From a virus: 64,000 nucleotides of DNA. The stretch lies in IMG/VR virus record IMGVR_UViG_3300045988_066710. One strand, given 5' to 3'. A program made the translations under genes and the position numbers. Of the stretch, positions 12,535 through 56,202 are shown piece by piece. The number at the start of each line of letters is the position of its first letter. Within the stretch, counting starts at the first letter, position 1. The notes beneath the pieces are model-generated. The model saw only the letters and a list, made by a program, of their open reading frames with translations, did not search any database and was not told the origin of the DNA.

Positions 12535-12564
12535 AATAGTGTATTTTAAAATTTTAAAATTATT

Positions 12565-12951
12565 TTAGGTTTTTGCAACCAAAAGTTTATCATTATCTAT
12601 CTTAATTAAGTATGTATAGTTTCCTGCCATAAAAGATTCAAGGTTCTCAAAAATTGGACCATTTGATGTTCCTTTGATTTTATACAGGTAACTAGTATCG
12701 TCACTGTCCTTGCAATAAATGTTAGTTCCTATCATTAATCCTGTAGTGACTATCTCCAGGATACCTCCTTTCGATGCCTTTTGAAACCAATTATATACGT
12801 TGATATTACCTGCTATATCCAAGTTAACAATTTGATGATTTGCAACAAATGGAATGTTTTGATTTTGAGAACTTTTAACAATAGCTGTGCCAAAACTTGC
12901 TTTTATTTTTGTTAAAAAATGGTTTAGTCCATTTAAATCTAAAAACTTCAT
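12565..12951 (-). CDS. short fibre or receptor-binding protein sharing its N-terminal module with 12976..13926
   Basis: The N-terminus MKFLDLNGLNHFLTKIKASF is nearly identical to the start of the neighbouring gene. Confidence 0.45.
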   Translation of the reverse strand: MKFLDLNGLNHFLTKIKASFGTAIVKSSQNQNIPFVANHQIVNLDIAGNINVYNWFQKASKGGILEIVTTGLMIGTNIYCKDSDDTSYLYKIKGTSNGPIFENLESFMAGNYTYLIKIDNDKLLVAKT

Positions 12952-12975
12952 ATTAATTAATTTTTAAAATTATTA

Positions 12976-13926: not shown

Positions 13927-13944
13927 ATATATATTAATTAAAAA

Positions 13945-14394
13945 TTATTCAAATAAATTATCTATTTCTATATTAGTAATAGAAATAAGTGTTTCCATTA
14001 AATACTTTTCAAAGTCTAAATTAAACCATTTATCCTTCTCAGAAAACTCTTCTAGAATTCCTCTAAATTGATAAAATTGCCAATTACCATTTACATCTTG
14101 AAAAGTAATAAATAAACCCTCTCTTCTTTGTAATTCAGGTACTAAATTAATAGCTTCTGATAAAGAAATATAATGTTCATCATACTTATTACTAATATTA
14201 ATTATATCTTTATCTCCTAAAGATATTTGTTCAAGAAAATCTACAATTTTAATTTTCTTATTTTTACCATTTTGTACTATGGATATAATATCATTAGGAG
14301 TAACAGGCTCTGCATTAGGTAACTCACTGTCTTTTACACTAATTTTAAATAGAGCTTGTTGTATTTTTAGAATATCTTCCCTTGTAAAAAACAT
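13945..14394 (-). CDS. hypothetical protein (149 aa)
   Basis: ORF in the fibre region. Confidence 0.5.
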   Translation of the reverse strand: MFFTREDILKIQQALFKISVKDSELPNAEPVTPNDIISIVQNGKNKKIKIVDFLEQISLGDKDIINISNKYDEHYISLSEAINLVPELQRREGLFITFQDVNGNWQFYQFRGILEEFSEKDKWFNLDFEKYLMETLISITNIEIDNLFE

Positions 14395-14396
14395 AC

Positions 14397-14636
14397 TTAT
14401 ACTTTTCTAAATTGTTCATTAAAATCTGTTATTCTAAGACCACTGAAGTCAATATGGTCTATATCATATATACCTATATTTCTCCAAGCAGATATACACT
14501 TATTATATACTTTTATATTATTATGATATATCCATAGTAAAGACGTATCTATTGGTGCTTGTTCACTTTTAGAATATTCTAATTTATCTATCTTGGAAGA
14601 AATAAAAGCATCTAGTTTTTTATCTTCTGTATACAT
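14397..14636 (-). CDS. hypothetical protein (79 aa)
   Basis: ORF with 1-2 nt spacing to its neighbours. Confidence 0.45.
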   Translation of the reverse strand: MYTEDKKLDAFISSKIDKLEYSKSEQAPIDTSLLWIYHNNIKVYNKCISAWRNIGIYDIDHIDFSGLRITDFNEQFRKV

Positions 14637-14637
14637 A

Positions 14638-15366
14638 TTATGCTTGTATTAAACCACTAGTTCTAAATTGTGCTAATAAATTATTTACTACTCTAGCTAC
14701 TTGACCAATAGTAGCAGTATCTGCATCTAAGTCTGCTATATTAGTGATAGCTTTAACTCCACCTAAAATATTCTTAGTAGCAGTTGGTAATGTATAATTT
14801 TGCAGATTAGCTAATTTATTCTTTTCTGCTGTAGTATAATCATTACTAGATAATTGTTTACCTTCAACTTTATCTACTTTATTGTTTAATTCACTGGTAA
14901 AATCCTTTAAAGTAAATTCTTCTCCCTTAATAACCTCTCCATCTTTACTTATAGTATATTTAACTGCATGACCTTCACTTGTTATAATAAGTGCTGTACC
15001 TCCTGTAGCAGGAAGCCAAGAAGCAGTACCATATCCATAATTAATATCTGTAAAGAAAGTATGGTCATTAGTTTGAATAGATTGAAGTTTCTTTAAATTA
15101 TTAGCTTTAATTTCATTACTATCTCCTATTTCTAATTCTACTACATCTTGTTTTGAACCAAGTATAGATAGGTCTTTTTTAACTTCTCCCATTTCTTTAT
15201 CTAATGAATCTACCTTTTCTTCAAGTTCTTTCCTATCTTCATTAGATTCTCCTAAAGTAGTCCAAGTACCATTATTATAATATTTAGCAGTATTACCATA
15301 TACCCAAACAACATTATTATCATTAGGCATATCAGACTGTACTACAAGTTGATTTATTATTTTCAT
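14638..15366 (-). CDS. fibre protein (head- or tail-fibre type)
   Basis: Carries the SNDYTTAEKNKLANL motif typical of phage fibre repeats, plus a coiled-coil segment. It overlaps the end of the portal gene. Confidence 0.5.
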   Translation of the reverse strand: MKIINQLVVQSDMPNDNNVVWVYGNTAKYYNNGTWTTLGESNEDRKELEEKVDSLDKEMGEVKKDLSILGSKQDVVELEIGDSNEIKANNLKKLQSIQTNDHTFFTDINYGYGTASWLPATGGTALIITSEGHAVKYTISKDGEVIKGEEFTLKDFTSELNNKVDKVEGKQLSSNDYTTAEKNKLANLQNYTLPTATKNILGGVKAITNIADLDADTATIGQVARVVNNLLAQFRTSGLIQA

Positions 15367-17747
15367 TGTTTATTATTTACTTGTTTATGAATTTGTTGTC
15401 TTTTAATTGATAATTCTTTATCAAGTTTTTCTTTTAAAAAATTAAGATTTGTATCAAATTGTCTCTTATTTTCATCAAGTTTAGCTTGTTCCATAGAATT
15501 ATCAGGTTCCTCTATAGGAGTATCTTTAGAAGCTGCATTAATCTGAGCAACTAATATCTTAGTTTCATTATTCTCTTGATTTATCTTATATTCCTGTTCT
15601 CTTTGAAGTTGTTCACTCTCAGCCTTCTGTTGTAAAGCAGCTTGAGCTTGTTGTGCTTCCTGTTGTTGAGATTGTTGTAATTGCTGTAATTTGGCATTCT
15701 CATCTTTCTTAACCATATTAATCTTTTCAGCAAGAGAAGCAGTACCAAATAATTGCATAATAGTAGAGAATGATAATGCCTGATTCTGTAAAGCTGCTTG
15801 AGCTAATGTTTCTATCTGTTGATTTAACTTTTGAGAAGCTTCACTATTATCTACTACTAGACCATAGTCACATTCTGCAAATTCATCACCATCTATTTCT
15901 AACATCTTTAAAGCACCATCAGGTAATATATATTGGAATTTCTTCTTATTACCTTTCATAGCTATTTTAGCTGTTTCAATAAAAGCTTCAAGAACTCTTT
16001 TCTTTAAGTTTTCATGAGTAACAAATAACCATTCAGTAATATGTGAAGATTGTAATGTTGCTCTTTCAACTCCACCTACAGTTTCTCTATTACTAACTTG
16101 ACCTTCTCTTTGAGGAGAAATACCTGCTACTTCTGACATTTCATTTTTAATAAAGGTAAGTAATTCTACATAAGATTGTATCTGATTAGCATCACTTGCA
16201 GATATAACTCCATTTGAAGCATTATTCATAGCTCCTGCAAGCTTTCCTGTAGCAGCACCTACATTACCTTCATTAAAAGAATCTTGAACATATAATCCTA
16301 AAGTCTTAGCAAAATACATCCATTTATCCATTCCCCAATTCTTAGGTTTCTTAGAGAAATCAAAGCTAACTAAAGTACCCCAGTTTCTAGCAATTAATTT
16401 ATTTAATCTATCATGAATAACATCATATAAATAGTTATATGGTTTCATCATATCAACTAAACTGAAAGGCTTATTATCATTAAGATTATATAAAGAACCT
16501 ATAATACCAAAATGACATTTTGAAGGATTCATTAAACTATTATATTGTACAACACAAGGTCTCATATTAACATAGATATTCTCACCTATCTTAGTACCTT
16601 CCCATGCCTGATTAATATAATAAGTTTCTTCTTCTTCACCTAAGTTTTCATTAATTACATAATCTTCTGAATAGAAATTATATTGAGGTTCACCATCTTC
16701 ATCATAAGATTTTACTTTCTTAATTTTTCTTTTAGATTTCCAATATACCCTAAGTACTTTAATATTACCTGCCATATCATAAGGCATAAGGCTTTCTGTA
16801 TATCCATCTGTGATAGAACTAAAGAAACCTTCTTGGCTTACTTCTGCATTATTAACTTCAATATTTTCATCTAAGAAATCAGCAGGTATCATAGTATATC
16901 TAGGGTCAACATTACTCATTTCATCTGTTTTACCTTCATCAATGCCTACTTTAAGATTCTCAATATAATCAATATCTTTTTTCTTTAATACATCATGGAA
17001 TGTATCTATTATTCTTCCAGGACTCCAATAATCTTCAAGAATAATAATATCTGCATCTTCTATTCTATTACTATATCCTGATTTGAGTATTCTTACTTTT
17101 AAAGGATTTAATCTTCTTACTACAGGTTCTCCCCCTTCAATACTACATTGATAAATTTCTTCACCTACAGTCATTGCATCTCTGAATCCCTCATTAAACA
17201 TTACTTTCATATCATATTGCTTGACATAATGATTAAGGATTAAATTTCCTCTTTGTTCTCTTGCATCCTGCCAATTATATGTAAAGTAATCATTAATTTT
17301 ATCTAATTCCTGACTAGCTTCTTCATCACTCATAGAATTATCAGTTATCCATTCCTGTAATCTCTGATTTAATTCTTTTTTCTTATTCTCTTCTATTTCA
17401 GAAATAGCAGTAGGATTAGTTACTATAACTCTATAATCAAATACTCTTTTTGATTCTTCTCCTTGAAGAACATTAAGTTTAGGAAGAAGAATACTATAAT
17501 GTTGTATTTTATTAGGTATATAATCTGCTTTAATATCATCTGGATTTAATATTAATTGCAAATCATTCATATGTAATTTACCTAATAATAAATCATAGTT
17601 AATCTTCTTATGAAGAACACTCTTTCTGCATAGAGAATAATGAGTGAATGATTTAGAATCAAAAAAATCTAGGCATTGCTTTCTCCACTTTTTAGTCTTT
17701 CTAGAAAATGGTAAAGCCTGTCTTGGAAAACTATTTATTTCACTCAT
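15363..17747 (-). CDS. portal protein
   Basis: 794 aa, immediately downstream of the large terminase. The Gln-rich coiled-coil C-terminus, size and position are typical of portals in crAss-like phages. Confidence 0.7.
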   Translation of the reverse strand: MSEINSFPRQALPFSRKTKKWRKQCLDFFDSKSFTHYSLCRKSVLHKKINYDLLLGKLHMNDLQLILNPDDIKADYIPNKIQHYSILLPKLNVLQGEESKRVFDYRVIVTNPTAISEIEENKKKELNQRLQEWITDNSMSDEEASQELDKINDYFTYNWQDAREQRGNLILNHYVKQYDMKVMFNEGFRDAMTVGEEIYQCSIEGGEPVVRRLNPLKVRILKSGYSNRIEDADIIILEDYWSPGRIIDTFHDVLKKKDIDYIENLKVGIDEGKTDEMSNVDPRYTMIPADFLDENIEVNNAEVSQEGFFSSITDGYTESLMPYDMAGNIKVLRVYWKSKRKIKKVKSYDEDGEPQYNFYSEDYVINENLGEEEETYYINQAWEGTKIGENIYVNMRPCVVQYNSLMNPSKCHFGIIGSLYNLNDNKPFSLVDMMKPYNYLYDVIHDRLNKLIARNWGTLVSFDFSKKPKNWGMDKWMYFAKTLGLYVQDSFNEGNVGAATGKLAGAMNNASNGVISASDANQIQSYVELLTFIKNEMSEVAGISPQREGQVSNRETVGGVERATLQSSHITEWLFVTHENLKKRVLEAFIETAKIAMKGNKKKFQYILPDGALKMLEIDGDEFAECDYGLVVDNSEASQKLNQQIETLAQAALQNQALSFSTIMQLFGTASLAEKINMVKKDENAKLQQLQQSQQQEAQQAQAALQQKAESEQLQREQEYKINQENNETKILVAQINAASKDTPIEEPDNSMEQAKLDENKRQFDTNLNFLKEKLDKELSIKRQQIHKQVNNKQ

Positions 17748-25432: not shown

Positions 25433-28228
25433 TTATTTAACTTTTGAATTAAGTAATGTGACTCCTGTACCCAGTGGGATAAGACTATATCTTAAATCTT
25501 TAATGCTAAAATTATCTCTCTTAGATAAAGGAATTATATTACCTAAATCATCATAAGTAACAGCAGAAGAATATTTTAAATCATTAGGATTAAAATTCTC
25601 TATAACAGTACCTGAAGACTTTATATTACCATCCATTAAGAATGTTCCTTTAGGCATAGCTTTACCTCCCCAATCTTTTATATTATGTATAACTAATCTA
25701 TCTATATCATATTGAGGATGATTTCTAACTGCCTTTTCTAATGTTCTAGTACTCCATATATTGCCATTATAAGGTATTTCATTCCAAGGTTGATAATACC
25801 CTTCTATATCATAACTCTTAGAAGCATTAGAATATAATTTTTTAACTCTATCATAAGTAGGCTTAGATGAATAAGATTTACTCATAGCTAAATTGTCTGT
25901 AGTATATATAGCAGAATTAGAACCTTCAATATTAGGATTAAATACATTAAAACTTGAGTCATATTCATCACCTACTGTATGGTATAATTGTGTAGGTCTA
26001 TCTCTATTCATTAAAGGGTTACTAGCTTTAACTTCAAAATGTTTGTCTCTTAATTGCTGTAAATCTTCATAGTCTCCAGTATTATATAATCTATTATATA
26101 TTCTATCTAATCTATTATCAGAAATGTTAGCCATATTATTCATAGCTTCATTAAATAATCTCTTATTAATTCTACTATTTATATTATTTTTAAGAGTATT
26201 ATATCCTTTATTTAAAGCTACTCCAGTTAATATATCTCCACCTATATTACCTAATGTACTTATATAAGGGTGTTCTTTAGCATATTCTCTAGTAAAGAAA
26301 CCAGTATTATCTTGATTCATAAAGCTATTCATAAATGTATTATAATCTCTAGCTTCTCTTATAGAACCTATAATATTACTAGGACTAAAATTACTTATAG
26401 GAGCTATAGCAGCATTAATAAATTCTAATGTAGTATTAGGGTCATAATATTGTCTTGTATTTCTAGGCATAGTACCTTTAATTATAGGTACATGTTCTTC
26501 ATCTAAATAACTTTGAGTATAGTTATTACCTGCACTATCATATAAATTACCATCTTCTGTATGAAGTAATATGTTACTTCTTCTATTATCTGCATCTATA
26601 AAATTTAAATTACCTCCTTCATCAAAACTCTTTTCAAAAGGAGACATATATAAATTATTACTACCTGTATTATTATATAAATGATAACCAGTTTTGCTTA
26701 AATCATATACATCACCAGCAGAGTCTAAAATATTTTGACCTGCTCCTAAATAATCTGCTGTTTTATCTATATCCCAAAATCTATTTTTACCTATTCTTAA
26801 TCTAGTAGGTAATTTATTTGTGGCTCCTAAAAGTCCTAAAGTATCAAAAGCTAAAGCACTATAATCAGTTGCCCCTAAATCATCATCTACTATAGATTGT
26901 CCAAATTGTAATCCATTTGTTAAAAGTCCTGCACTTAATACTGGTACTGTAGGATTATATAAACTATATAAATTAATACCTAAATCTATAGTATCTAGTA
27001 CTGGTTTATACATATTTATATTATTAATATACTGCTGTTTATAAGCTTCTGGTATATTTTTATTTATTGCTTGTATAGTATCATTAGGAGACATTTGAGA
27101 TGGTATATTTCTTAAAGAATTAAATTCTTTTTCTAAGGTTTTTGCTCTCTTAGTATTCTTTTCTATTGTAATAACTTTTGACTTTTCTTCATTTGTTTTC
27201 TGTTGCTTTTGTATATTAGCTTCCCACTCTTTATATTTATTTATTGCTGTAGAATCATTTAATGCTACCTCTTGTGATTTATTATCTAAATCTTGTATTC
27301 TTTCTTTATATTCTTCATCAGTTTCCCAACTTCTTCTTTTATATGGATTTGTAGCAGGATGAGCAGGCATTACTGTTCTATTGTTATCTTTATTACCTCC
27401 TTCAGCAAATATATTACTATTTAAATCTGAATCAAAATCTGATAGTAATGATTTAGCATAACTATAATCTGGCTGTACAGGAGCAACATTATTATTACCA
27501 ATAGATAATAAATTATCCATAGATATTATTGGTCCTGTACCAGTAGAGAATAAATCATCAATATCTGTCTCTTTAGTTTTACCCATAATATCATTCATTG
27601 ATAATTGAAGTCCTTTATATGCACCTAAATAGTTTTTACCTTGCCATTCTTCATTCTGTATTTGATAAGGATTACTACTACTTCTATTAGTAGTAGCAGT
27701 ATAACCATAATTATGTGGTGTTCCTCCTGTACCAGTGAATACAGTTTGGTATTTACCACCAAATAAACTTCTTTCAATGTTTCTTCTAGTAGTAAGACCT
27801 CTTAATTCATTATCTTTTGAAGCCCACATAGATTTTTGTACATCTTCATTTGATGCTTTACCTTGAACATAATTAGTTAAGGTAGGTAATACTCTTTTCT
27901 TAAGATTACCCATACCTACATTATAGCCATAAGAATATAAGGCATCAAGCTGTTGTTGAGATAATTTAGACCTAATACTTGATGGTATTACCCTATTAAA
28001 GTCATTAGCTTCTGCTTGAAATGACCTATTAGTTCTCATTGAACTACCTTCCCAATTAGTTATTCTTTTCTTAATACTTTCTGATGGTTTATAACCACCA
28101 TTAGCATACATATTATATCTGTTTCTTATATCAGATAGGTTATATATACCATTATTAACTGATTCTTTAATATAATCAGCTTTATCTTTTAAACTTAATT
28201 TATTCCAACTCATAATTTTAATTATCAA
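25433..28228 (-). CDS. 931-aa protein with N-terminal lysozyme (GH24/T4-lysozyme-like) domain; probable virion-associated or lysis muralytic protein
   Basis: Residues about 50-160 (ITNWEGSS...LSQQQLDALYSYGYNVGMGNLKK...LRGLTTRRNIERSLFGG) follow the phage lysozyme pattern. The remainder is Asn/Tyr-rich and unrecognised. Confidence 0.55.
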   Translation of the reverse strand: MIIKIMSWNKLSLKDKADYIKESVNNGIYNLSDIRNRYNMYANGGYKPSESIKKRITNWEGSSMRTNRSFQAEANDFNRVIPSSIRSKLSQQQLDALYSYGYNVGMGNLKKRVLPTLTNYVQGKASNEDVQKSMWASKDNELRGLTTRRNIERSLFGGKYQTVFTGTGGTPHNYGYTATTNRSSSNPYQIQNEEWQGKNYLGAYKGLQLSMNDIMGKTKETDIDDLFSTGTGPIISMDNLLSIGNNNVAPVQPDYSYAKSLLSDFDSDLNSNIFAEGGNKDNNRTVMPAHPATNPYKRRSWETDEEYKERIQDLDNKSQEVALNDSTAINKYKEWEANIQKQQKTNEEKSKVITIEKNTKRAKTLEKEFNSLRNIPSQMSPNDTIQAINKNIPEAYKQQYINNINMYKPVLDTIDLGINLYSLYNPTVPVLSAGLLTNGLQFGQSIVDDDLGATDYSALAFDTLGLLGATNKLPTRLRIGKNRFWDIDKTADYLGAGQNILDSAGDVYDLSKTGYHLYNNTGSNNLYMSPFEKSFDEGGNLNFIDADNRRSNILLHTEDGNLYDSAGNNYTQSYLDEEHVPIIKGTMPRNTRQYYDPNTTLEFINAAIAPISNFSPSNIIGSIREARDYNTFMNSFMNQDNTGFFTREYAKEHPYISTLGNIGGDILTGVALNKGYNTLKNNINSRINKRLFNEAMNNMANISDNRLDRIYNRLYNTGDYEDLQQLRDKHFEVKASNPLMNRDRPTQLYHTVGDEYDSSFNVFNPNIEGSNSAIYTTDNLAMSKSYSSKPTYDRVKKLYSNASKSYDIEGYYQPWNEIPYNGNIWSTRTLEKAVRNHPQYDIDRLVIHNIKDWGGKAMPKGTFLMDGNIKSSGTVIENFNPNDLKYSSAVTYDDLGNIIPLSKRDNFSIKDLRYSLIPLGTGVTLLNSKVK

Positions 28229-28718
28229 TTTCAGTTCCTTGTGTTAATATGTAATCATTTATAAAAGTAATTCTATTACCATTAAAGATAACTAGAGGAT
28301 TAACCCAGTATTTCTTAGAATTAGAACTTCTTGTTAAGATACCTTTTTCAAGTAATTCTATTACTCCATCATATACAGATTTTCTAGTTTTAAATCCTAC
28401 ATTATCCATACATTCTTTATAGTCTAAATATACAAAAGGTTTTTCTTTAGGTACATTATCTATAATATACCATAGTACTTTTTGTGCAGTAGTACTTAAA
28501 GCTAAGATTGTTTTTAAGCTATCTTTAAATACTTTTATAAATTGTGTTCTATCTACTATCTTCTTAAAGTTTACTTCACAGAATTCTGTACTATTAATAA
28601 ATTCTGTGTCTTTACCTTTATAAATAGTTCTACTTCTAGTATTATCATTTAATTGACTAGATAAAGATTCCTGATAAGGAAATATATCTGCTATTGGATA
28701 TTCATCTAATTTCTTCAT
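28218..28718 (-). CDS. winged-helix DNA-binding protein (RepL-like or transcription-regulator-like)
   Basis: VLWYIIDNV...ECMDNVGFKTRKSVYDGVIELLEKGILTRSSNSKKYWVNPLVIFNGNRI resembles the RepL-type wHTH pattern. It is the first gene of the leftward arm, next to palindromic operators. Confidence 0.45.
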   Translation of the reverse strand: MKKLDEYPIADIFPYQESLSSQLNDNTRSRTIYKGKDTEFINSTEFCEVNFKKIVDRTQFIKVFKDSLKTILALSTTAQKVLWYIIDNVPKEKPFVYLDYKECMDNVGFKTRKSVYDGVIELLEKGILTRSSNSKKYWVNPLVIFNGNRITFINDYILTQGTEIDN

Positions 28719-28738
28719 ATTATTAATCTTTTATTTTC

Positions 28739-28748
28739 TGCAAAGATA
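28739..28748 (-). promoter_or_regulatory. Bacteroidota-type -7 promoter box
   Basis: Reverse complement is TATCTTTGCA. It lies 21 nt upstream of the ATG at 28718. Confidence 0.6.
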
Positions 28749-28840
28749 CAAAAATTATTTTTAATATGCAAGAAAATAAACAAAATAATTATTTATTTAT
28801 ATACACTTTGTTTATTTTTTATATCTATTAAAATATATAT

Positions 28841-28890
28841 GTGTATATTTAAATATACACTTTAACATTTTTTGGTATATTTAAATATAC
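28841..28890. promoter_or_regulatory. pair of palindromic operator-like sites (core GTATATTTAAATATAC)
   Basis: There is a perfect 20-nt palindrome GTGTATATTTAAATATACAC at 28841-28860. The 16-nt core recurs at 28875-28890, 32 nt away centre to centre. Confidence 0.55.
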
Positions 28891-29001
28891 ATACCTCTAT
28901 TGATTATTAGATAGTTAGAGTAAATTACTTCTTATATTCTTATATAAGTAGTTTAATTTTTAATTTTTAAAATTTTATTTTTTTGAAATTGACTATATTG
29001 T

Positions 29002-29071
29002 CATAAGCGTGGTATTTTATTTTTTAATTTTAATTTTTTAAATTTTTATTATAGTTACATAAGCGTGGTAT
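29002..29071 (+). repeat. direct repeat of CATAAGCGTGGTAT (2 copies, 56-nt period), each preceded by an A/T tract; candidate early promoters
   Basis: Exact 14-mers at 29002-29015 and 29058-29071. The second runs into TATAAT (29069-29074). Both lie upstream of the first rightward gene. Confidence 0.45.
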
Positions 29072-29074
29072 AAT

Positions 29075-29122
29075 CCACCCAACCTCACCCCCTAGACTAT
29101 AGGGTTGGGATAGTCCCCCCTA
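29075..29122 (+). other. C-rich structured leader element
   Basis: Sequence is ccacccaacctcaccccctagactatagggttgggatagtcccccctac. CCCAACC(29078-29084) pairs with GGTTGGG(29103-29109). The composition is strikingly C-rich for an AT-rich genome. Confidence 0.4.
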
Positions 29123-29143
29123 CAACATTTAAACATTAAGACA

Positions 29144-29476
29144 ATGATAAATTTTGCAAATTTCAAATCAAACAACCAGAGTAACAGTAACTTTATTGAG
29201 ACAGTAAGCCTTGAGGAAATGAAGGCAGCATGTAATGGTGCAAGAATTGATGTCTATTCTAGTAAGGAGAAGACACATAAAAGTGGTGCTACCATGTGTT
29301 TCTTTACTTGTGGTCAAACTACAGGCATGGTAGCTGAAAAGCTATCAGATAAGATGCTTAATGGCAAAGAATATGGTACTCCAGTAGTATCAGAAGTGAT
29401 CAGAAGTGATAATGGAGAACATATGTTGATAATGCATGAGCAGGGTGAGAACTCTAACAGCATTGTCAGCTTCTAA
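29144..29476 (+). CDS. first rightward (early) gene, hypothetical (110 aa)
   Basis: ORF followed immediately by a strong terminator. No motif recognised. Confidence 0.6.
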   Translation: MINFANFKSNNQSNSNFIETVSLEEMKAACNGARIDVYSSKEKTHKSGATMCFFTCGQTTGMVAEKLSDKMLNGKEYGTPVVSEVIRSDNGEHMLIMHEQGENSNSIVSF

Positions 29477-29482
29477 AGGGAA

Positions 29483-29505
29483 GGGAGCCTTGCTCCCTTT
29501 TTTAT
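29483..29505 (+). terminator. intrinsic terminator
   Basis: Stem GGGAGC(29483-29488)/GCTCCC(29492-29497) followed by TTTTTTATT. Confidence 0.75.
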
Positions 29506-29563
29506 TATCTCTAGTGTTAATATCAAATATCATTAGAGAGAATATCATGTATGTTTTAAAGTT

Positions 29564-29641
29564 TTTAAGTCCTATAAGAAAGAAATAATATTCTTTTGTT
29601 TTACAGTTTTACAGTCTTTTTTCTTTCTTATAGGACTTAAA
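29564..29641 (+). repeat. 22-bp perfect-stem hairpin with tandem GTTTTACAG x2 in the loop
   Basis: TTAAGTCCTATAAGAAAGAAA (29565-29585) pairs with TTTCTTTCTTATAGGACTTAA (29620-29640). The loop is 34 nt. Confidence 0.7.
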
Positions 29642-29881
29642 TAAATACTTTAATAGAACTTTGTAATCTATTGATTATTAAGGTTTTAGGTTTAAAGGAT
29701 TAAGGTGTGAGGGTGCTAAACCAAATCCCCTATAAAATCACTATAATCTACTCTCTAGTCTTTTTGTTAACAACAAATAAGATGATAACATTTTATACTT
29801 TCTCATTACAACTATTGTTGTTTTATTTAGTATGAAATATCAATAAAATAAATAGTTAAAAACAATAAAAATATAACAATT

Positions 29882-30193
29882 ATGGCAATTATTAGAGAAT
29901 TAAAGAAAGTAGAGAATAATAAATTACATGATGCTATTCTCTTAACTACTCTTGTAGATAACAACAAATATAAGTTTAATAAACTTTATGTTGATCCTGA
30001 CAAAGAATGTGCTATTTACTTTAAAGGCATCTTACCTTTAAAAGTTATACAAGCTTTCTTCTTTAATCTTAGAGATAATGTTACATCATCATCAAGAATT
30101 GAAGATGAAGAAATCACAGCCTTTAAAGATTATGAGTATAATTATGATGATAACACAACAGCTATCTATACTAGAGATGGTTGGAAGTATTAA
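29882..30193 (+). CDS. hypothetical protein (103 aa)
   Basis: ORF in the rightward array. Confidence 0.5.
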   Translation: MAIIRELKKVENNKLHDAILLTTLVDNNKYKFNKLYVDPDKECAIYFKGILPLKVIQAFFFNLRDNVTSSSRIEDEEITAFKDYEYNYDDNTTAIYTRDGWKY

Positions 30194-30212
30194 ATAATAA
30201 AAATATATAAAT

Positions 30213-30473
30213 ATGAAAACAACTCATACATTATCCTCAATAGAGGCAGTTGCTTATGCTTTAGAGCATAGTGATAAAATACCTGATATATCTTTTAGTA
30301 AAGTTAAACCTAATGTTACAACACATCAGGCATTAAAAAATATACAAAAAATGTCCATTGACCTCTCTATTGAGTTAAAAGACAAATTAGAGCAAGTACT
30401 TAAATTAATGAAAGCTGAAGGCAAAACAAAAGATGATGAAGCTTTCAAAATTATAGTAGACTTACTCTACTAA
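30213..30473 (+). CDS. hypothetical protein (86 aa)
   Basis: ORF followed by a hairpin. Confidence 0.5.
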   Translation: MKTTHTLSSIEAVAYALEHSDKIPDISFSKVKPNVTTHQALKNIQKMSIDLSIELKDKLEQVLKLMKAEGKTKDDEAFKIIVDLLY

Positions 30474-30484
30474 AAAGATAACAA

Positions 30485-30513
30485 AGTAGGTAGTACTCTA
30501 GTACTATCTACTT
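30485..30513 (+). terminator. terminator-like hairpin
   Basis: AGTAGGTAGTAC-tc-TAGTACTATCTACT imperfect stem followed by TTATT. Confidence 0.4.
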
Positions 30514-30529
30514 ATTAATATTAATCATT

Positions 30530-30622
30530 ATGAATAAAAAAGAGTTTTATACATTTTATTTCTATACAGAATTAATAGGTACTATTATAGTATCTATACT
30601 TTTAGGTTATATGATATTTTAA
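30530..30622 (+). CDS. micro-ORF, single-TM peptide (30 aa)
   Basis: Hand translation gives MNKKEFYTFYFYTELIGTIIVSILLGYMIF*. Confidence 0.35.
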   Translation: MNKKEFYTFYFYTELIGTIIVSILLGYMIF

Positions 30623-30632
30623 TATTTAAGAA

Positions 30633-30767
30633 ATGAAAAAATTACTTTATATTATAATACCTATTGGTATTTTAGCAGTATTAAATATACTAACTGATGA
30701 ACAATATATTGTAGTAGGTTGGATATTTATAGGTATTTGGATTATTAAAATATTAGCAGAAAAATGA
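30633..30767 (+). CDS. micro-ORF, two-TM peptide (44 aa)
   Basis: Hand translation gives MKKLLYIIIPIGILAVLNILTDEQYIVVGWIFIGIWIIKILAEK*. ATGA overlap with the next ORF. Confidence 0.4.
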   Translation: MKKLLYIIIPIGILAVLNILTDEQYIVVGWIFIGIWIIKILAEK

Positions 30768-30943
30768 AAAAGAAATATTTAATAACATTCTATAGAATGT
30801 TTAAACCTAACTATTATTTAGCTAGGTCTATTAATGCCTCTAAAACTATAGAGGAAGGTTATAAGGAATGCAAAGCTTTTGCTTTGCATAAACATTTACT
30901 GAAAGGTAAGTGTATTTGGTTTAAAGTAACATTAAAAAAGTAA
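30764..30943 (+). CDS. small basic protein (59 aa)
   Basis: Hand translation gives MKKKYLITFYRMFKPNYYLARSINASKTIEEGYKECKAFALHKHLLKGKCIWFKVTLKK*. Confidence 0.4.
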   Translation: MKKKYLITFYRMFKPNYYLARSINASKTIEEGYKECKAFALHKHLLKGKCIWFKVTLKK

Positions 30944-30947
30944 CATT

Positions 30948-31130
30948 ATGAGTACAACTATCAATGAAAAAGTAGCTACTTGCTACTACAAGAGTGAAAG
31001 AACTATTGTTCGTAAAAATCATGTAACTAAAATTACAAAAGAAATTGAATTAGTCTTTTGTGAAAGTAAGGAAAAGAGCACTTACTATTCACATAAGAAT
31101 AAAGCTAAAAAGAAATTATTTAGATATTAA
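30948..31130 (+). CDS. hypothetical protein (60 aa)
   Basis: ORF followed by a terminator hairpin. Confidence 0.45.
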   Translation: MSTTINEKVATCYYKSERTIVRKNHVTKITKEIELVFCESKEKSTYYSHKNKAKKKLFRY

Positions 31131-49915: not shown

Positions 49916-50938
49916 ATGATTAGCAATGGATATACTTCAATAACTTTAAAAGATATATTAAACAAAGTAGATGAGGGTCAAATACTTAATTTCTACTTTG
50001 GTATTACACAAGTTCCTTTTAGAATGAATAGCCCTTTAAGGAATGATTCTAAACCTTCATTTGGATTATATTCAAGTGATGGTATACATATACATTATAA
50101 AGACTTTGCAACAGGAGAACAAGGGTCTTTATTTGATTTACTTATGCAAATCTACAATATTAGTTTTATAGAACTAGTAGATAAGATAAGTAAAGATATG
50201 AATATTAATACTAAGCAGATTAATATCTCTAAATCTCAAATTAAACATAACTCAGCTACAATAAGTAGTAGTCAAATCAGACTAGAGGTTAAAACTAGAG
50301 AATGGAGAAATTATGATGTTGAGTATTGGGAATCTTATGGATGTAATATAAATCTATTAAAGTATGTTGAAGTATATCCTATTAGTCATAAAATTATATA
50401 TAAAGATAATAAAAGATATACCTTTGCTTGTGATAAACTAGCATATTGTTATATTGAAAGAAAAGAAGGGAATATCACCAAGAAAATTTATCAACCCTAT
50501 AATAAAAATGGTTACAAATGGACATCTTCCAATGACAAGAGTGTTATTGGTTTGTGGTCTAAAATTCCAGAGACAGGAGATACATTGCTTATATGTTCAT
50601 CATTGAAAGATAGTATCTGTCTATGGTCTAATGTTAATATACCCTGTATATATGTTCAATCAGAAAATACAGAGTTAAGTGATTCTGCAATTAATTGTTT
50701 ACAAAAAAGATATAATCATATTTATATAGCATTTGATGGAGATTCAGCAGGTGAAATAGATGCCTATAATCTTAGATTAAAAACAGGTTTTGAGATAATT
50801 CATTGTCCTTTAATTGATAAGGCAAAAGATTATTCAGATATATATCATTATTTTGGTAAAAAAAGACTTATTGAAGAATTTAATAATGCTTTTAATAAGA
50901 CTAAAGCACCAGATATGGATGATGATTTACCTTTTTGA
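49916..50938 (+). CDS. DnaG/Toprim-type DNA primase with SSB-like C-terminal tip
   Basis: SPLRNDSKPSFGLY is a degenerate primase zinc-finger region. The Toprim-like segment reads LLICSSLKDS...IAFDGDSAGE. The C-terminus is PDMDDDLPF. Confidence 0.65.
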   Translation: MISNGYTSITLKDILNKVDEGQILNFYFGITQVPFRMNSPLRNDSKPSFGLYSSDGIHIHYKDFATGEQGSLFDLLMQIYNISFIELVDKISKDMNINTKQINISKSQIKHNSATISSSQIRLEVKTREWRNYDVEYWESYGCNINLLKYVEVYPISHKIIYKDNKRYTFACDKLAYCYIERKEGNITKKIYQPYNKNGYKWTSSNDKSVIGLWSKIPETGDTLLICSSLKDSICLWSNVNIPCIYVQSENTELSDSAINCLQKRYNHIYIAFDGDSAGEIDAYNLRLKTGFEIIHCPLIDKAKDYSDIYHYFGKKRLIEEFNNAFNKTKAPDMDDDLPF

Positions 50939-50984: not shown

Positions 50985-51698
50985 ATGGAAAAAAGAAAGA
51001 TTACAGTGATTCCTACAAAGACTCACAAGACACAAGTTATTGAAAGTGCAGCAACAACATTGGCAGAACTCAAAGCAGACCTTACTAAGGCAGGTATTAA
51101 TTATACTGATTGTACATTCTTTGAGGGTCTTACTAAGATTGAATTGAAGAATGATGCTGCTATTCTTCCACATGATGTTCCTTATAAGGGAACTACTACT
51201 AATAACTTAGTATTTATGATTACTAATGCTTCAAAGAAGATTAGAAGTGGAGCAAAGCTTGATAGAAAGGCTATCATTGAGGAGATTAAGAGTAAGAATC
51301 TTACAGAAGTAGTTAAGAAGACTTATGGTAAGAATTATACTAACTGTAAGACAGAAGATTTGCAGAAGATTCTTAACAAAGAAGCAGCTTCTACAACAGC
51401 AGATGCTTCAGCTCCTACAGCTAAAGCAGCTCCTGCAAAGAAGGAAGCTCCTAGTAAGCCTGTAATGAAGGCTGATGACCCTAGTAACTATGTTACTAAA
51501 GCAGAACTTAAGAAAGTTATTGAAAGTCTTTTGGAAGAAATGGAGAATGCAGGTATGGATTATTCTGATGATATTGATATTGATAATATTGCTATTATTG
51601 GTAATGTCACTTCAGATACTTCAAATGCTTCAAAGGAAGAGGAATCAGATTCTCCATATTCATCAAATGAACTTGATGATATGTTTAAAGATATGTAA
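50985..51698 (+). CDS. hypothetical protein with Ala/Pro/Lys linker and acidic C-terminus (237 aa)
   Basis: ORF followed by a strong terminator. No motif recognised. Confidence 0.55.
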   Translation: MEKRKITVIPTKTHKTQVIESAATTLAELKADLTKAGINYTDCTFFEGLTKIELKNDAAILPHDVPYKGTTTNNLVFMITNASKKIRSGAKLDRKAIIEEIKSKNLTEVVKKTYGKNYTNCKTEDLQKILNKEAASTTADASAPTAKAAPAKKEAPSKPVMKADDPSNYVTKAELKKVIESLLEEMENAGMDYSDDIDIDNIAIIGNVTSDTSNASKEEESDSPYSSNELDDMFKDM

Positions 51699-51716
51699 TT
51701 TATAAAAAATCTAATA

Positions 51717-51756
51717 GGGAGTAAGTATAGTAATATATTTGCTCCCTTCTTTTTTA
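51717..51756 (+). terminator. intrinsic terminator
   Basis: Stem GGGAG(51717-21)/CTCCC(51742-46) followed by TTCTTTTTTATT. Confidence 0.55.
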
Positions 51757-51762
51757 TTACTT

Positions 51763-52878
51763 ATGGATATAAAAGAACAAATAAGAAATAAGTATTATAC
51801 TCCTACAGAAGAAGCTCTTAAAGTATATGAAATATTTAAAAGTTTCTTTGGTGAAACTAAAGTAGACTTTCAAGTAGATAAAGATTTTAAAGATGCTGTA
51901 GAAACTTTAATAGCAGAAGATGAAAACTTGGAAGATACTTTAAACCTTCCTTTACTTCCATTATGTGAATTTTCATATATTATATTAGTTCATTTTCCAA
52001 ATGTAACTATTACTAATGAAAAAGATAATAATGTAGATATTCATGATTTATATGTTAAAGTACCACTTGATTATACAGGAAAACAAGCTAAAAGATTTGA
52101 AATGATTGTTACTACTTTCACTAAAGTTTTATATGAAAGTCATTATACACATTCCCATTTACCTTCAGGTTCTTTAAGTCATGGTAAAGCTTATTTTAAT
52201 AGACCTTGTTTAGGAGAAGGTCCTATTGGAGACACTTGTAATATTCTTGGAGATGAAAATAATGAAAATATATGGAAATTATTCTGTGTGGAATTAGCTA
52301 GATATGTTACAGTAGAATCTATAGCAGGAGTTCCTTATTACAGAATGGAAAATATTGGTAGAAATAATAGTAATAAAGAAATAATTCTTTCAGATACTTG
52401 TTATACAGTCTCTTCAGAAATTTCATTTATTATAAAAGAAGCCATACGTAATCTTATAAATAGAAAAGTATTTACTTTTAAATATGTAAATAATACTTAT
52501 AGCTTTGCTGCTAATGATGCTTCTTTAATTAGATTAATAAGCAATGAGTTTATAACAATTTATAATAAAAGATTTAATAATAAAGAACTTTCTACAAATT
52601 TAAATGAATTAATAAGAGCTAAAATTCTTATAAAAGCAGTTTTTTATAAAGGATGTTTTACTGAAGAAGATAGTAATAGACACAGTTCTTGTAGTCCTAG
52701 TACTGATGTCTTATTTACATTTAAGAATATACCTGTTAAAATGAAGATTATAGATACTGATACTACTATTGAACCTGTATATATTCTTAATGTAAAATAT
52801 ATTAATGTGGCAATACGAAATATATTAGAATTTATAAATTACAATTATGGACAAGAATATATTAAAGAAACAAGATAA
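51763..52878 (+). CDS. first gene of the E1/JAB operon; possible E2-like protein (371 aa from ATG)
   Basis: The start is trimmed from the TTG at 51739, which lies inside the terminator, to the ATG at 51763. The segment YTHSHLPSGSLSHGKAYFNRPCLGEG loosely recalls the HPN...C active-site region of E2. Confidence 0.3.
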   Translation: MDIKEQIRNKYYTPTEEALKVYEIFKSFFGETKVDFQVDKDFKDAVETLIAEDENLEDTLNLPLLPLCEFSYIILVHFPNVTITNEKDNNVDIHDLYVKVPLDYTGKQAKRFEMIVTTFTKVLYESHYTHSHLPSGSLSHGKAYFNRPCLGEGPIGDTCNILGDENNENIWKLFCVELARYVTVESIAGVPYYRMENIGRNNSNKEIILSDTCYTVSSEISFIIKEAIRNLINRKVFTFKYVNNTYSFAANDASLIRLISNEFITIYNKRFNNKELSTNLNELIRAKILIKAVFYKGCFTEEDSNRHSSCSPSTDVLFTFKNIPVKMKIIDTDTTIEPVYILNVKYINVAIRNILEFINYNYGQEYIKETR

Positions 52879-53983
52879 TACATATAAGTTAATTATTACT
52901 CCAGAACTAGAAGAAAAGATTAGATTCTTGTGTGCTAGATTTCCTAATAATGAATATAGTGGAGTATTATTCTATGATTATACTGGTAGATTTGAAGATA
53001 ATTCTTTAGTATTAACTGCTAAAGATTTCTGTCTTATGGATTATGGTTCTGCTACTTATACTGAGTTTGATAAGAGTGCAGAAATCTGTAATTATATGAT
53101 AGAACATGATTTATTAGAATGTCAGCAAGGTTTAATGCATTCACATGACCAGATGTCAACGTTTTTCAGTGGAACTGACCTTGGAACTCTTCAAGAAGAA
53201 GGTTCTGATATGAATAATTTCTTATCTTTAATTGTAAATAATGCTGGTCAATATACTGCGGCAATTACAAGAAAAGTTAAACATATTCCTCATGTAACAG
53301 AAGTACTTGAATATGAGTTCTTTGGTGAAGAAACTATTAATATAGGTAATGATGAATATGATGCTATAGAATCTTATGAAATAGAATATTTCTTCTTGAA
53401 TATTGAAAAGCCTACTGTAAATATTGGTTATACAGACCTATTTAATAGAATTGAAGAAATTAGTAAGGATAAGACTAAAATTACAAATATTAGTAGAGAA
53501 CCTCGTGCTAATCTTATTGTTGACTCTACTTTAAAGGCAACACCTTTATATAAGGAAACAAATATACCTTTCTCTAAGGCTAATACTGCTGTTCAAGCAG
53601 GAGTAGATACAGATGAATCTATTGATTATAATAAGTATAAATTTAATGAAACAGACTTAAATAATATTGTTAAACAATTACTTATAGGTAGTCCTATATT
53701 TACTCCAAAAGACCTCAATGAATGGGTTCAAAAAATGCCTACAGTATTTTCTAAGAGATTTGGAGAAGGACAAAAAGGTTTAGCGAATTATAGAGCTTTT
53801 ATTGGTTATTTTGTAGAATTTCTTGTAACAGAAGCCTTTGATGATAATTTAGCAGAAGAAGGTTATCTTGAAGATTCACAAATGGCTATATGTGCTTATG
53901 GTGTATTACAGAAATTACATACATTTAAAACTAATTCCTTTATTGAAGTTATAGAGGATGAAATAGAACGTTTTATTATTTAA
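52847..53983 (+). CDS. JAB/MPN+ (JAMM) metallopeptidase-domain protein
   Basis: An upstream Glu in NNEYSGVLF plus MHSHDQMSTFFSGTD gives the exact H-x-H-x7-S-x2-D JAMM motif. The C-terminal about 200 aa is unassigned. Confidence 0.75.
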   Translation: MDKNILKKQDNTYKLIITPELEEKIRFLCARFPNNEYSGVLFYDYTGRFEDNSLVLTAKDFCLMDYGSATYTEFDKSAEICNYMIEHDLLECQQGLMHSHDQMSTFFSGTDLGTLQEEGSDMNNFLSLIVNNAGQYTAAITRKVKHIPHVTEVLEYEFFGEETINIGNDEYDAIESYEIEYFFLNIEKPTVNIGYTDLFNRIEEISKDKTKITNISREPRANLIVDSTLKATPLYKETNIPFSKANTAVQAGVDTDESIDYNKYKFNETDLNNIVKQLLIGSPIFTPKDLNEWVQKMPTVFSKRFGEGQKGLANYRAFIGYFVEFLVTEAFDDNLAEEGYLEDSQMAICAYGVLQKLHTFKTNSFIEVIEDEIERFII

Positions 53984-53987
53984 AATT

Positions 53988-54938
53988 ATGAATGAAGAAT
54001 CAACTATAACTCCACCTTTGGAGGTTAATATGGAACAAATAGTAAATACTACAGCTAATGTTCCAGAAGTTGCTATTGCTCCTTTAGAGATAACAGAAAG
54101 AGAAACAACATCAATATTAGAACCTGAAGAAGTAGTAGAAGAAGAATCAGAATCTATATTATCAGAAGAAGATGAAGCTTTTTTGAATGAAGTTATTGAA
54201 AACCAACATCAGGAAATTCCTCTTATAAGTGAAGATTATCATGATGAAACTGCTAGATTTTCAGGAGCAGAATGGTTTAATAAAATTAAAGAGAAAATTA
54301 TTATTGTAGGAGGTGCAGGAGGTATTTCTTCAAATGCTATATTTCAATTAGCTAGAATACACCCTAAGAGTATTTATATCTTTGATAATGATAAAGTTGA
54401 GGAAGTTAATCTTGCTGGACAAATGTTTGGTATCAAGGATATAGATAAATATAAAGTGGATGCCATAGCAGAAACTGTTAACCATTATAGTAAATATACT
54501 GATGTGTTTGCTATGCGAGAATTATATACTAGTAATAGTTTTACTTCTGATATTATGATTTGTGGCTTTGATAATATGGAAGCTAGAAAGGTATTCTTTA
54601 ATAACTGGAAAAAACATGTAGAATTGCAGAAAGATAAATCTAAATGTCTATATATTGATGCCCGATTGTCATTTGATACTTTACAAATACTCACTATTGT
54701 AGGTACAGATACATATAATCAGGATAGATATGAAAAAGAATTCTTATTTTCTGATGAAGAAGCAGATGAAACTGTATGTAGTTTAAAACAAACTACTTTT
54801 ATGGCATGCATGATAGCTTCTTTTATTGTAAATAATGTAGTTAATTTCTGTGCTAATGAAATTGTTCCTATGATAAAGCAATTACCTTTCTTTATAGAAT
54901 ATGATTGTAATATGATGTACTTAAAAGAAGAAGATTAA
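53988..54938 (+). CDS. ThiF/MoeB/E1-like adenylyltransferase
   Basis: Acidic N-terminal tail, then Rossmann motif IIIVGGAGGISSNAIFQLARI, followed by FDNDKVEEVNLAGQ and DIMICGFDNMEARKVF as in E1-like adenylation domains. Confidence 0.75.
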   Translation: MNEESTITPPLEVNMEQIVNTTANVPEVAIAPLEITERETTSILEPEEVVEEESESILSEEDEAFLNEVIENQHQEIPLISEDYHDETARFSGAEWFNKIKEKIIIVGGAGGISSNAIFQLARIHPKSIYIFDNDKVEEVNLAGQMFGIKDIDKYKVDAIAETVNHYSKYTDVFAMRELYTSNSFTSDIMICGFDNMEARKVFFNNWKKHVELQKDKSKCLYIDARLSFDTLQILTIVGTDTYNQDRYEKEFLFSDEEADETVCSLKQTTFMACMIASFIVNNVVNFCANEIVPMIKQLPFFIEYDCNMMYLKEED

Positions 54939-55606
54939 TGATAAGTGAAAATATTAAAAATAATATAAATAGCTTTCTTGGTGTTACGTCAGCCTCTCTC
55001 TGTTCAACAGGTATACCTTTATTAGGAACAGAGAATAATCAATTCTCTCTATATATGACAAATCATATATTTAATGGTAAGATTACAGAGATTCCTATTT
55101 ATAATTCTTTATCTTCGAGAGGAATAATTCCACTATTTACTTTTTCTTCTACTAGTATAAATGAAAGAAAAACTTTTGGTCCTCTCTTAAAAGAGTTAAG
55201 TTTTACTAGAGGAGCAGGAGCATTAAATAGAGTTAGAGATAAAGATGGTAATCTTTATTATGGAATGAGAGGTTTAATACTTAATAGTAATTTAGAGCCA
55301 TTAGTATTATGTACTATTAGACCTCCTAGAACATCATCAGCTACCACAGAACTTATACTTAGAGTAAGTCCTAAAGTTTTTAATAGTGATAATGTTGTAT
55401 GTAAAGGTATTCAAAAGTATCTTATTGAATATTGTAGTACTGTCTCTAGATATTTTTCTATAGTAAGTGGTTTTACTACTATGACAGTTATCATTAACAA
55501 TGATATTGATAAGTTTATAAGACATGCCAAGGCTCCTACCAATATTAATGTTAATGAGGAAATACAACAGCTTCTTGTAGATAATATAGATAAATTATGT
55601 CTTTAG
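54938..55606 (+). CDS. fourth gene of the E1/JAB operon, unknown function (222 aa)
   Basis: ATGA-coupled to the E1-like gene and overlapping the ung start. No motif recognised. Confidence 0.5.
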   Translation: MISENIKNNINSFLGVTSASLCSTGIPLLGTENNQFSLYMTNHIFNGKITEIPIYNSLSSRGIIPLFTFSSTSINERKTFGPLLKELSFTRGAGALNRVRDKDGNLYYGMRGLILNSNLEPLVLCTIRPPRTSSATTELILRVSPKVFNSDNVVCKGIQKYLIEYCSTVSRYFSIVSGFTTMTVIINNDIDKFIRHAKAPTNINVNEEIQQLLVDNIDKLCL

Positions 55607-56202
55607 AGGAATATTTTGGAGATTGGTTAAAAGTAATAGATAAGAAAGTATTATATGAGACAATTAATACACTTAATTCTAGCAATACTGTTAATTTGTG
55701 TCCTAATTATAATGACATCTTTAATTGCTTTAAAGCTTGTAAATTATCTAAATTAAAGGTAGTTATATTAGGTTTAAGTCCTTATCCACAATTAGGTAAG
55801 GCTACTGGAATTGCTTTTGGTAACAATATAAAAACACTTGATAAAGATCTATCACCATCCTTACAAGTTATAAAAGAATCAGTTATCAATTATGAAATTC
55901 CACAAAATAGTAGTATCTTTGACCCCAGTTTTGAAGATTGGGAGAAGCAAGGAGTATTAATGTTGAATTGTGCATTGACATGTAAAGCAGGTCTCCCTAG
56001 TTCTCATTTAGGACTATGGAGACCTTTTATATCTAAACTAATATATAATATGTCTAGATATATGACTGCTTGTGTATATGTATTATTTGGTGAAGAAGCT
56101 AAAACTTTTGAACCTTATATCTCTCAATATAATTATGTAATTAAAGAAAAACATCCTTCATATTATGCTAGGAATCATAAGAAACTTAGATATAATTTGT
56201 AG
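55597..56202 (+). CDS. ung: uracil-DNA glycosylase (family 1-like)
   Basis: VVILGLSPYPQLGKATGIAFG (compare GQDPYH...GLAFS), GVLMLNCALTCKAG, and KHPS near the C-terminus. Confidence 0.8.
   Translation: MSLEEYFGDWLKVIDKKVLYETINTLNSSNTVNLCPNYNDIFNCFKACKLSKLKVVILGLSPYPQLGKATGIAFGNNIKTLDKDLSPSLQVIKESVINYEIPQNSSIFDPSFEDWEKQGVLMLNCALTCKAGLPSSHLGLWRPFISKLIYNMSRYMTACVYVLFGEEAKTFEPYISQYNYVIKEKHPSYYARNHKKLRYNL

Follow-up and report, generated by a model that had tools for sequence, protein, structure and literature searches.

We analysed a 64,000-nt stretch of viral DNA (IMG/VR record IMGVR_UViG_3300045988_066710, hereafter the window) and observed that five genes lying between a DnaG-type primase and a uracil-DNA glycosylase (UDG, ung), here called U, A, B, C and D, are inherited together in crAss-like phages. 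The window virus belongs to the family Steigviridae, its proteins being 45–55% identical to those of cr85_1, crAss001 and DAC15. Gene C encodes an E1/ThiF-type protein and gene B a JAMM/MPN+ protein, and the active-site residues of both are conserved. We propose, giving the idea about equal chances of being right and wrong, that the five genes form a phage-encoded and self-contained cassette for the activation and processing of a ubiquitin-like (Ubl) protein, which would act independently of an E2 in the manner of SAMP, UbaA and JAMM1 and would include two phage-specific partners. An original prediction, made from the letters of the sequence, had pointed to an E1 and JAMM operon consisting of A to D. 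All four open reading frames (ORFs) are present on the plus strand as it described them, the E1 assignment stands, the JAMM residues prove conserved, and related phages preserve the gene order.

Co-inheritance and active sites of the E1 and JAMM proteins

We surveyed 80 IMG/VR loci retrieved with the E1, out of 272 matching viral contigs. The order primase-U-A-B-C-D-UDG was found in essentially all of these loci at 25–50% identity, and it is also present in crAss001 (gp79–gp75), DAC15 and the bajarodcaudo virus, so that the synteny expected for related Crassvirales is indeed kept. Phages of the fish pathogen Flavobacterium psychrophilum (Fipvunavirus, for example Fpv1) possess U, A, a split B and C, with the UDG gene moved upstream of U. 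Each of U, B and C was detected in 74 of 50,697 phage records, with an identical taxon breakdown, and the neighbouring primase in 141.

By its sequence gene C belongs to the E1/ThiF superfamily, as had been read earlier from its Rossmann motifs. The Pfam ThiF model matches residues 92–307 with 57.6 bits (cut-off 28.1), and a profile built from four clades matches UBA5 (1e-7), MccB, TcdA, PaaA, UBA6/7, NAE (the NEDD8 E1), ThiF and Cap2 in the PDB. Comparison of an 81-sequence alignment with E. coli ThiF by hhalign gave a probability of 95.9%. The Gly-rich ATP loop GAGGISS is present, and the adenylation residues are retained relative to ThiF: the Arg finger R90 (equivalent to ThiF R8), D133, K156 and D195-N-x3-R200, all invariant in the four clades; the second Arg of the RQ motif is Gly. 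Cys264 aligns with ThiF Cys184 in hhalign, a site that corresponds to MoeB C187 and UBA5 C250. The pattern CS.KQT[TS] at this candidate catalytic Cys is found in 82 of 83 homologues, and the adenylation motifs together with the Cys are likewise intact in 82 of the 83. In the alignment to ThiF the two CxxC structural zinc motifs are absent from gene C; such a zinc site occurs in many members of the superfamily but is not universal. The acidic N-terminal extension of about 85 aa that had been noticed before is real, and across homologues it measures 21–194 aa, with 26% D+E and 2% K+R, but is missing from gp53 of Flavobacterium phage Fpv1.

Models of particular E1 families were also compared with gene C. 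PADLOC's CBASS (cyclic oligonucleotide-based anti-phage signalling system) model 'E1-E2' (Cap2) matches with 7e-10. A model of UbaA matches with 1.7e-5. From NCBIfam, PRK08644 reaches 62.5 bits (4e-17; cut-off 159) and thiF_fam2/TIGR02354 51.9 bits (9e-14; cut-off 152). We considered ThiF proper, the ThiS adenylyltransferase, as the identity of gene C and rejected it, these equivalog scores being under their cut-offs and no thiamine genes lying nearby. GenBank labels genes of the cassette 'thiamine biosynthesis protein ThiF', 'E1 enzyme family protein' and 'metalloprotease domain containing protein', of which 'thiamine biosynthesis protein' is almost certainly misleading.

By its motif gene B is a JAMM/MPN+ metalloprotease, with moderate support from profiles. 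The signature originally recognized, NNEYSG followed by HSHDQMSTFFSGTD, was found again, and the arrangement E...H98-S-H100-x7-S108-xx-D111 is invariant across four clades. The complete motif is carried by 77 of 84 homologues, the other 7 being contig-end truncations or split genes. In profile alignments it stands in register with PfJAMM1 and CSN5; Pyrococcus furiosus JAMM1 (the desampylase PfJAMM1, 5lda) is the best solved relative (E=0.009), with CSN5 at E=0.19. PADLOC's JAB model covers residues 5–118 (114 residues, E=3e-5), its BilD model matches weakly (E=0.004), and Pfam Prok-JAB yields 16.5 bits (E=0.008), under its gathering cut-off of 25. For the C-terminal part of about 230 residues the only matches were PHROG families to which no function is assigned.

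Some phages carry an interrupted JAMM gene. In two phages about 97% identical to the window (L006 and L014, 4694..6996) the break lies within or just before the HSH zinc motif. The first ORF in L006 ends with QQGLMH and the second begins with MSTFFSGTD, and the opposite strand of the intervening stretch of about 1.2 kb encodes a LAGLIDADG endonuclease with two motifs. In Fpv1 (L084, 4707..6999) an endonuclease gene, again in opposite orientation, is located between gp56 and gp54, the latter starting with LIHSHN. A search of the interrupted JAMM genes with Rfam detected no group I intron.

A candidate ubiquitin-like domain in gene U

The original prediction had left the Ubl substrate unidentified. 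This was too pessimistic, because gene U, which lies upstream of the region it covered, shares its pattern of occurrence with the E1 and JAMM genes and has a Gly-terminated domain that may plausibly serve as the tag, although its Ubl fold is unproven. Residues 1–89 of U are the best candidate for the missing substrate, an assignment that is weak on fold and good on context. The domain ends in the pattern ...KKI[KR]SG, or more loosely ...K-x-[IV]-x-S-G, in which Ser88-Gly89 is invariant in every homologue from the roughly 80 loci; the residue that follows is Ala, Gly or Met, and the distant homologue gp58 of Fpv1 reads KQVKSGG. When U(1–89) was compared by hhalign with a small alignment of ubiquitin, NEDD8, SUMO and ISG15, the match was collinear over the domain and beat 149 of 150 column shuffles, in local as well as global mode. 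By eye only, the domain may be read as strand-strand-helix-strand-strand-strand-tail, element by element as in ubiquitin.

The boundary at Ser-Gly is also marked by gene structure. An HNH-type homing endonuclease gene splits U in four lineages (L035, L060, L071 and the RefSeq phage cr106_1). In these the first ORF stops two codons past the Gly (...SGIC* or ...SGKF*) and the second half is a separate ORF with its own ATG, so that the two halves appear to work as separate proteins. The break falls exactly where a JAMM protease would be expected to cut. At Rfam gathering thresholds no group I intron was found at the split site. For the part of U behind the boundary, Pfam returned only a weak ATP-cone match (E=0.035), and a HeH/SAP-like reading of its GKN.T.CKT.DL segment was made by eye only.

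Between U and A we observed a terminator-like hairpin followed by a T-run, which recurs at the same position in all clades with unrelated stem sequences. We infer from this arrangement that attenuation may make U more abundant than the enzymes encoded behind it. As a separate observation, the primase C-terminus (window 50900..50938) reads ...APDMDDDLPF and by eye resembles the acidic tails of the single-stranded DNA-binding protein SSB and of T7 gp2.5 and gp4. U ends with ...NELDDMFKDM (51650..51698) and gp52 of Fpv1 (L084) with ...VEDLPF; by eye, these three acidic C-termini could be candidate replisome-docking tails.

Genes A and D and the primase–UDG slot

Gene A had been considered, cautiously, as E2-like because of a His-rich segment followed by PCLG. 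The segment and the PCLG are real, and H130, S131, H132, P148, C149, G151, G153 and P154 are invariant. Four motifs (TNE, Y.HSH, PC.G.GP and C.EL..Y..VES) occur together in 72 of 79 homologues; with their flanking residues they read FP.V.ITNE, Y.HSH, F..PC.G.GP and W.L.C.EL..YV.VES. The E2 reading itself did not hold. An AlphaFold model from a 46-sequence alignment including distant homologues had a mean pLDDT (predicted local distance difference test score) of 73, with 80–96 in the N-terminal half; Foldseek found no match to it in the PDB at E<=0.001 (best E 0.35) and no E2 among the matches listed, and in BFVD it found only the family itself, made up of uncharacterised crAss-like and Fpv proteins. 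With hhalign the probability against UBE2D2/I/N was 0.2%, and searches of PADLOC, NCBIfam, Pfam and PDB profiles matched nothing. A UBC/E2 fold was therefore rejected on the Foldseek and hhalign results, the HSH...PC.G motif being no evidence of homology. A second MPN-like domain, for which the HSH motif might speak, was rejected as well, the model matching no MPN structure.

Gene A belongs to a phage-only family and is no recognisable E2. Among 185,579 GTDB species genomes it had 3 matches, all on contigs (L085–L087) of metagenome-assembled genomes that, judging from contig size and identity, resemble mis-binned crAss-like phage. These genomes are labelled Bacilli, Acholeplasmatales and Spirochaetia, and one of the contigs has a length of 94,451 bp, as does an IMG/VR contig retrieved with the E1; the crAss-like contigs are probably binning contamination and not evidence of a host. 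From the invariant Cys149 alone, A may be a cysteine carrier.

Gene D belongs to a family of 199 representative clusters, all of about 215–265 aa, diverse and phage-associated. Its near-invariant positions are P, Y, G, V and I only, with no conserved catalytic-type residue, and none of the 199 representatives matched Pfam, PDB, PADLOC or NCBIfam. In Fpv1 no homologue of D was detectable; a positional counterpart without detectable similarity is present. From its conservation pattern we read D as non-catalytic and as a candidate adaptor or target.

The U-to-D block is a replaceable accessory cassette, and U is no core replisome protein. This follows from two phages of sister genera in the same subfamily (Asinivirinae), cr108_1 (Pipoluvirus) and the IAS virus, which are without U, A, B, C and D altogether and in which the slot between primase and UDG is filled by an amidoligase cassette and by a GHKL ATPase, respectively (Table 1). 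The amide-ligase set of cr108_1 would fit a role in ligation or tagging, and would also fit small-molecule or nucleotide chemistry. In the UDG region of L035 we noticed a group I intron (9691..9934; Rfam RF00028, 84.8 bits), and only a 103-aa UDG fragment was matched in L018, L022, L033, L035, L063, L080, L082 and L083, which suggests that the UDG genes of those loci are split by introns or homing endonucleases.

Table 1. Features of the cassette in the window and of the corresponding slot in two related phages
Feature	Position	Strand	Remarks
DnaG-type primase	49916..50938	+	upstream of gene U
Gene U	50985..51698	+	237 aa
Gene U, N-terminal domain	50985..51251	+	aa 1–89; candidate ubiquitin-like domain ending in invariant Ser-Gly
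Gene U, C-terminal part	51252..51698	+	aa 90–237; GKN.T.CKT.DL segment, A/P/K-rich linker, acidic C-terminus SPYS..E[IL]DDMF
Terminator-like hairpin	51716..51757	+	14-bp stem and T-run, between U and A
Gene A	51763..52878	+	371 aa; crAss001 gp78 family
Gene B	52847..53983	+	378 aa; JAMM/MPN+ protein
Gene B, JAMM/MPN+ metalloprotease domain	52847..53296	+	aa 1 to ~150; E45, H98-x-H100, S108, D111
Gene B, C-terminal domain	53297..53983	+	aa ~151–378; conserved across clades
Gene C	53988..54938	+	316 aa; E1/ThiF-type protein
Gene C, acidic low-complexity N-terminal extension	53988..54242	+	aa 1 to ~85
Gene C, E1/ThiF-type adenylation domain	54243..54938	+	candidate catalytic Cys264
Gene D	54938..55606	+	222 aa; crAss001 gp75 family
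Uracil-DNA glycosylase (UDG, ung)	55597..56202	+	downstream of gene D
cr108_1, primase–UDG slot (L089)	10004..17327		ATP-grasp, phiEco32-type COOH-NH2 ligase, Amidoligase_2, glutamine amidotransferases (GATases)
IAS virus, primase–UDG slot (L088)	10586..14049		732-aa GHKL (HATPase_c) protein and 320-aa unassigned protein

Genes A to D are tightly packed and co-directional, and they lie within the replication (middle-gene) module with primase and UDG on either side, as the original prediction described. The 32-nt overlap of A and B (52847..52878), the 4-nt gap between B and C and the 10-nt overlap of D with ung were all found as reported; a minor error concerns the junction of C and D, given as an ATGA overlap, where the sequence reads TAATG with an overlap of 1 nt. 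In crAss001 this region is part of the middle (replication) transcription module (PMC8375218). The overlap of A and B is unusually long, and in the clades of crAss001, the bajarodcaudo virus and DAC15 it extends to about 60 nt; the end of A that is encoded there shows poor conservation. Elsewhere in the window the GC skew changes sign at about 28000..31000, with a cumulative minimum near 29–30 kb, at the place where the genes change from the minus to the plus strand.

Proposed mechanism and competing explanations

On the proposed reading, U would be expressed in excess, with the terminator-like hairpin following it. The JAMM protease B would cut U past Ser88-Gly89, which would yield a free N-terminal domain of 89 residues and a separate C-terminal protein. 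The E1 encoded by C would then adenylate the new C-terminal Gly with ATP, probably followed by a thioester on Cys264, and the tag would be passed to a target lysine either directly or via the invariant Cys149 of A, in which case A would stand in for an E2 although it is not homologous to one. D would be an adaptor or a target, and B could also be able to reverse the modification. A more far-reaching version, which we hold only tentatively and think rather unlikely, is that Steigviridae and Fpv phages encode a complete Ubl conjugation pathway, with a JAMM-released pro-tag, a minimal E1 and a non-UBC Cys carrier (the gp78 family), which would modify host or phage proteins during the replication phase.

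Several observations weigh against the proposed cassette. Neither Pfam nor PHROGs nor PDB profile searches gave a Ubl match for U, single Ubl templates do not outscore decoy folds against U(1–89) in hhalign, and the AlphaFold model of U is of low confidence (pLDDT 45.7) and comes from a shallow alignment with homologues 84–97% identical (best 120 of 4,710). The tail of the domain is Ser-Gly and not Gly-Gly. The co-occurrence of U, E1 and JAMM partly reflects the shared ancestry of the carrier clades. The hairpin between U and A could equally mark U as the end of an upstream transcription unit, to which U may belong because this terminator-like structure separates it from A to D. The best family scores of gene C are those of small ThiF-type sulfur-carrier E1s, with PRK08644 below its cut-off, and A is no E2 by any test, which makes a thioester relay through A a speculation.

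The cassette can be compared with systems that combine similar enzymes. With archaeal sampylation (SAMP1–3, UbaA and HvJAMM1 or PfJAMM1) and with Thermus TtuB/TtuC it shares a minimal ThiF-type E1 of about 230 aa with a (here candidate) catalytic Cys, a separate JAMM protein for maturing and removing the tag (here predicted from sequence), a small Gly-ended tag (here a candidate) and the lack of a recognisable E2 or E3; for sampylation, the best solved-structure match of B and the UbaA match of C add to the likeness. In contrast to both, the phage cassette is virus-encoded, and its candidate tag, with Ser-Gly at its end, forms the front part of a longer protein. The cassette is also strictly linked to two additional proteins known only from phages (A and D), and its E1 lacks the CxxC zinc site and starts with a disordered, acidic extension. 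Lambdoid and T1 TAPI and TAPK are phage-encoded as well and also combine a Ubl-type domain (in U a candidate one) with terminal Gly, a low-complexity linker and a C-terminal domain, with a JAB predicted to cut at the Gly; for lambda TAPI/TAPK, JAMM release of the Ubl domain fused to the C-terminal domain has been proposed (PMC1779556). They differ in having no E1 and in belonging to the tail module, whereas here an E1 is part of a set located among replication genes. The amidoligase cassettes of phages (phiEco32-like, N4-like and that of cr108_1) are alike in that the Pipoluvirus example occupies the same slot and in consisting of enzymes predicted to be ATP-dependent, carboxylate-activating and amide-bond-forming, but they have unrelated protein folds, no Ubl and no JAMM.

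Two host-side systems were tried as identities for the cassette and rejected. The Bil (BilABCD) and Bub anti-phage operons likewise hold a Ubl (in the phage cassette a candidate one), an E1 and a JAB peptidase in one compact operon, in which the deubiquitinase (DUB) is reportedly responsible for processing the Ubl precursor. These are host defences with a true E2, however, and a Bil/Bub-type operon (Ubl, E1, E2 and DUB) does not fit a cassette without detectable E2 whose only link to BilD is the weak match of gene B. Type II CBASS, with Cap2 (an E2-E1 fusion) and Cap3 (a JAB), provides the best PADLOC matches of the E1 and JAB domains, but the phage cassette has no CD-NTase, effector or E2 domain and its E1 is not fused to anything enzymatic. 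No CD-NTase or effector was found in the window neighbourhood or the roughly 80 related loci, and PADLOC and Pfam detected no CBASS or Bil partner in the cassette or these loci.

The original prediction offered counter-defence, Ubl-type modification and nucleotide adenylation as possible roles. The data favour Ubl-type modification, in a cassette that is accessory and not core, and the other two were weighed together with a sulfur-carrier function. If the cassette served counter-defence, the JAMM protein would strip host Ubl conjugates, such as Bil tags on virion proteins or Cap2-primed CD-NTases, the E1 would sequester or mis-charge a host Ubl or the C-terminus of a CD-NTase, and U, A and D would be helpers or unrelated. 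The PADLOC matches of C and B to Cap2 and to 'JAB' (Cap3) speak for this, as do the restriction of the cassette to phages and its position in an accessory slot whose contents are exchanged, as is typical for anti-defence genes. A pure deconjugase, however, would need neither an E1 whose adenylation site and Cys are fully conserved nor three further phage-specific proteins that are strictly co-inherited with it, and since the BilD match is weak too, we regard this explanation as improbable. We see similarly little chance that amide or ester bonds are made on a carboxylate other than that of a protein, with the E1 adenylating a small metabolite, a nucleotide or a modified base in the way that TcdA acts on t6A, and with A and D tailoring a product that modifies phage DNA or nucleotide pools. 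The strictly conserved JAMM peptidase would then have no obvious role, D has no conserved residues of catalytic type, and the Ser-Gly boundary of U and its co-inheritance would be left unexplained. Such chemistry would suit a replication and nucleotide-metabolism module adjoining UDG, but this adjacency is not conserved, as the position of the Fpv1 UDG demonstrates. In its favour are also TcdA among the PDB and NCBIfam matches of gene C, the amidoligase and GATase enzymes in the same slot of cr108_1, and the invariant His, Cys and Glu of A, which suggest a metal or catalytic site.

A sulfur-carrier function would treat U(1–89) as a ThiS/MoaD-like protein, matured by the JAMM protease (as in QbsD/QbsE and Mec+/CysO) and adenylated by the E1 to give a thiocarboxylate, from which sulfur would go to a thio-nucleoside or a cofactor. 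The small ThiF-type adenylyltransferases PRK08644 and thiF_fam2 are indeed the best-scoring families of gene C, and GenBank names it accordingly. The residues past the Gly in split U (IC and KF) moreover resemble the GG-CF tail of QbsE, which is trimmed by QbsD. The ThiF scores, however, stay far under the curated cut-offs, the E1 has no rhodanese domain, and the basic tail of U (KKIKSG) is unlike that of ThiS or MoaD. No rhodanese, cysteine desulfurase, sulfurtransferase or PP-loop thiolase was found in the cassette or annotated in the replication and early half of crAss001, although host enzymes could supply these activities. Taken together, we consider a sulfur carrier very unlikely.

With regard to novelty, we found no publication in the searched literature that discusses these genes as one system or connects them with ubiquitin-like chemistry, and none that brings ThiF together with either crAss-like phages or FpV4; the genes go unmentioned in the crAss001 and Yutin 2021 papers. 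Prokaryotic systems of E1, JAMM and Ubl are known, and a form encoded by a virus, whose partners occur only in phages and whose pro-tag is internally encoded, would be new. If the more far-reaching version is correct, no Ubl conjugation machinery would, as far as our literature search shows, have been described from a prokaryotic virus before, and the gp78 family would represent a new class of E2 analogue, a non-UBC carrier protein. The proposed cassette would also provide a testable function for five genes now called 'hypothetical', 'ThiF' or 'metalloprotease', in carriers that include the cultured phages crAss001 and DAC15/DAC17, which belong to the phage order most abundant in the human gut. 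The alternation of unrelated ligase cassettes marks the primase–UDG slot as an accessory hotspot worth mining. Bacterial Ubl conjugation has so far been described on the host side, in sulfur carriers, CBASS priming and the Bil and Bub defences; a phage-side cassette of E1, JAMM and candidate Ubl would show that bacterial viruses use this chemistry as well.

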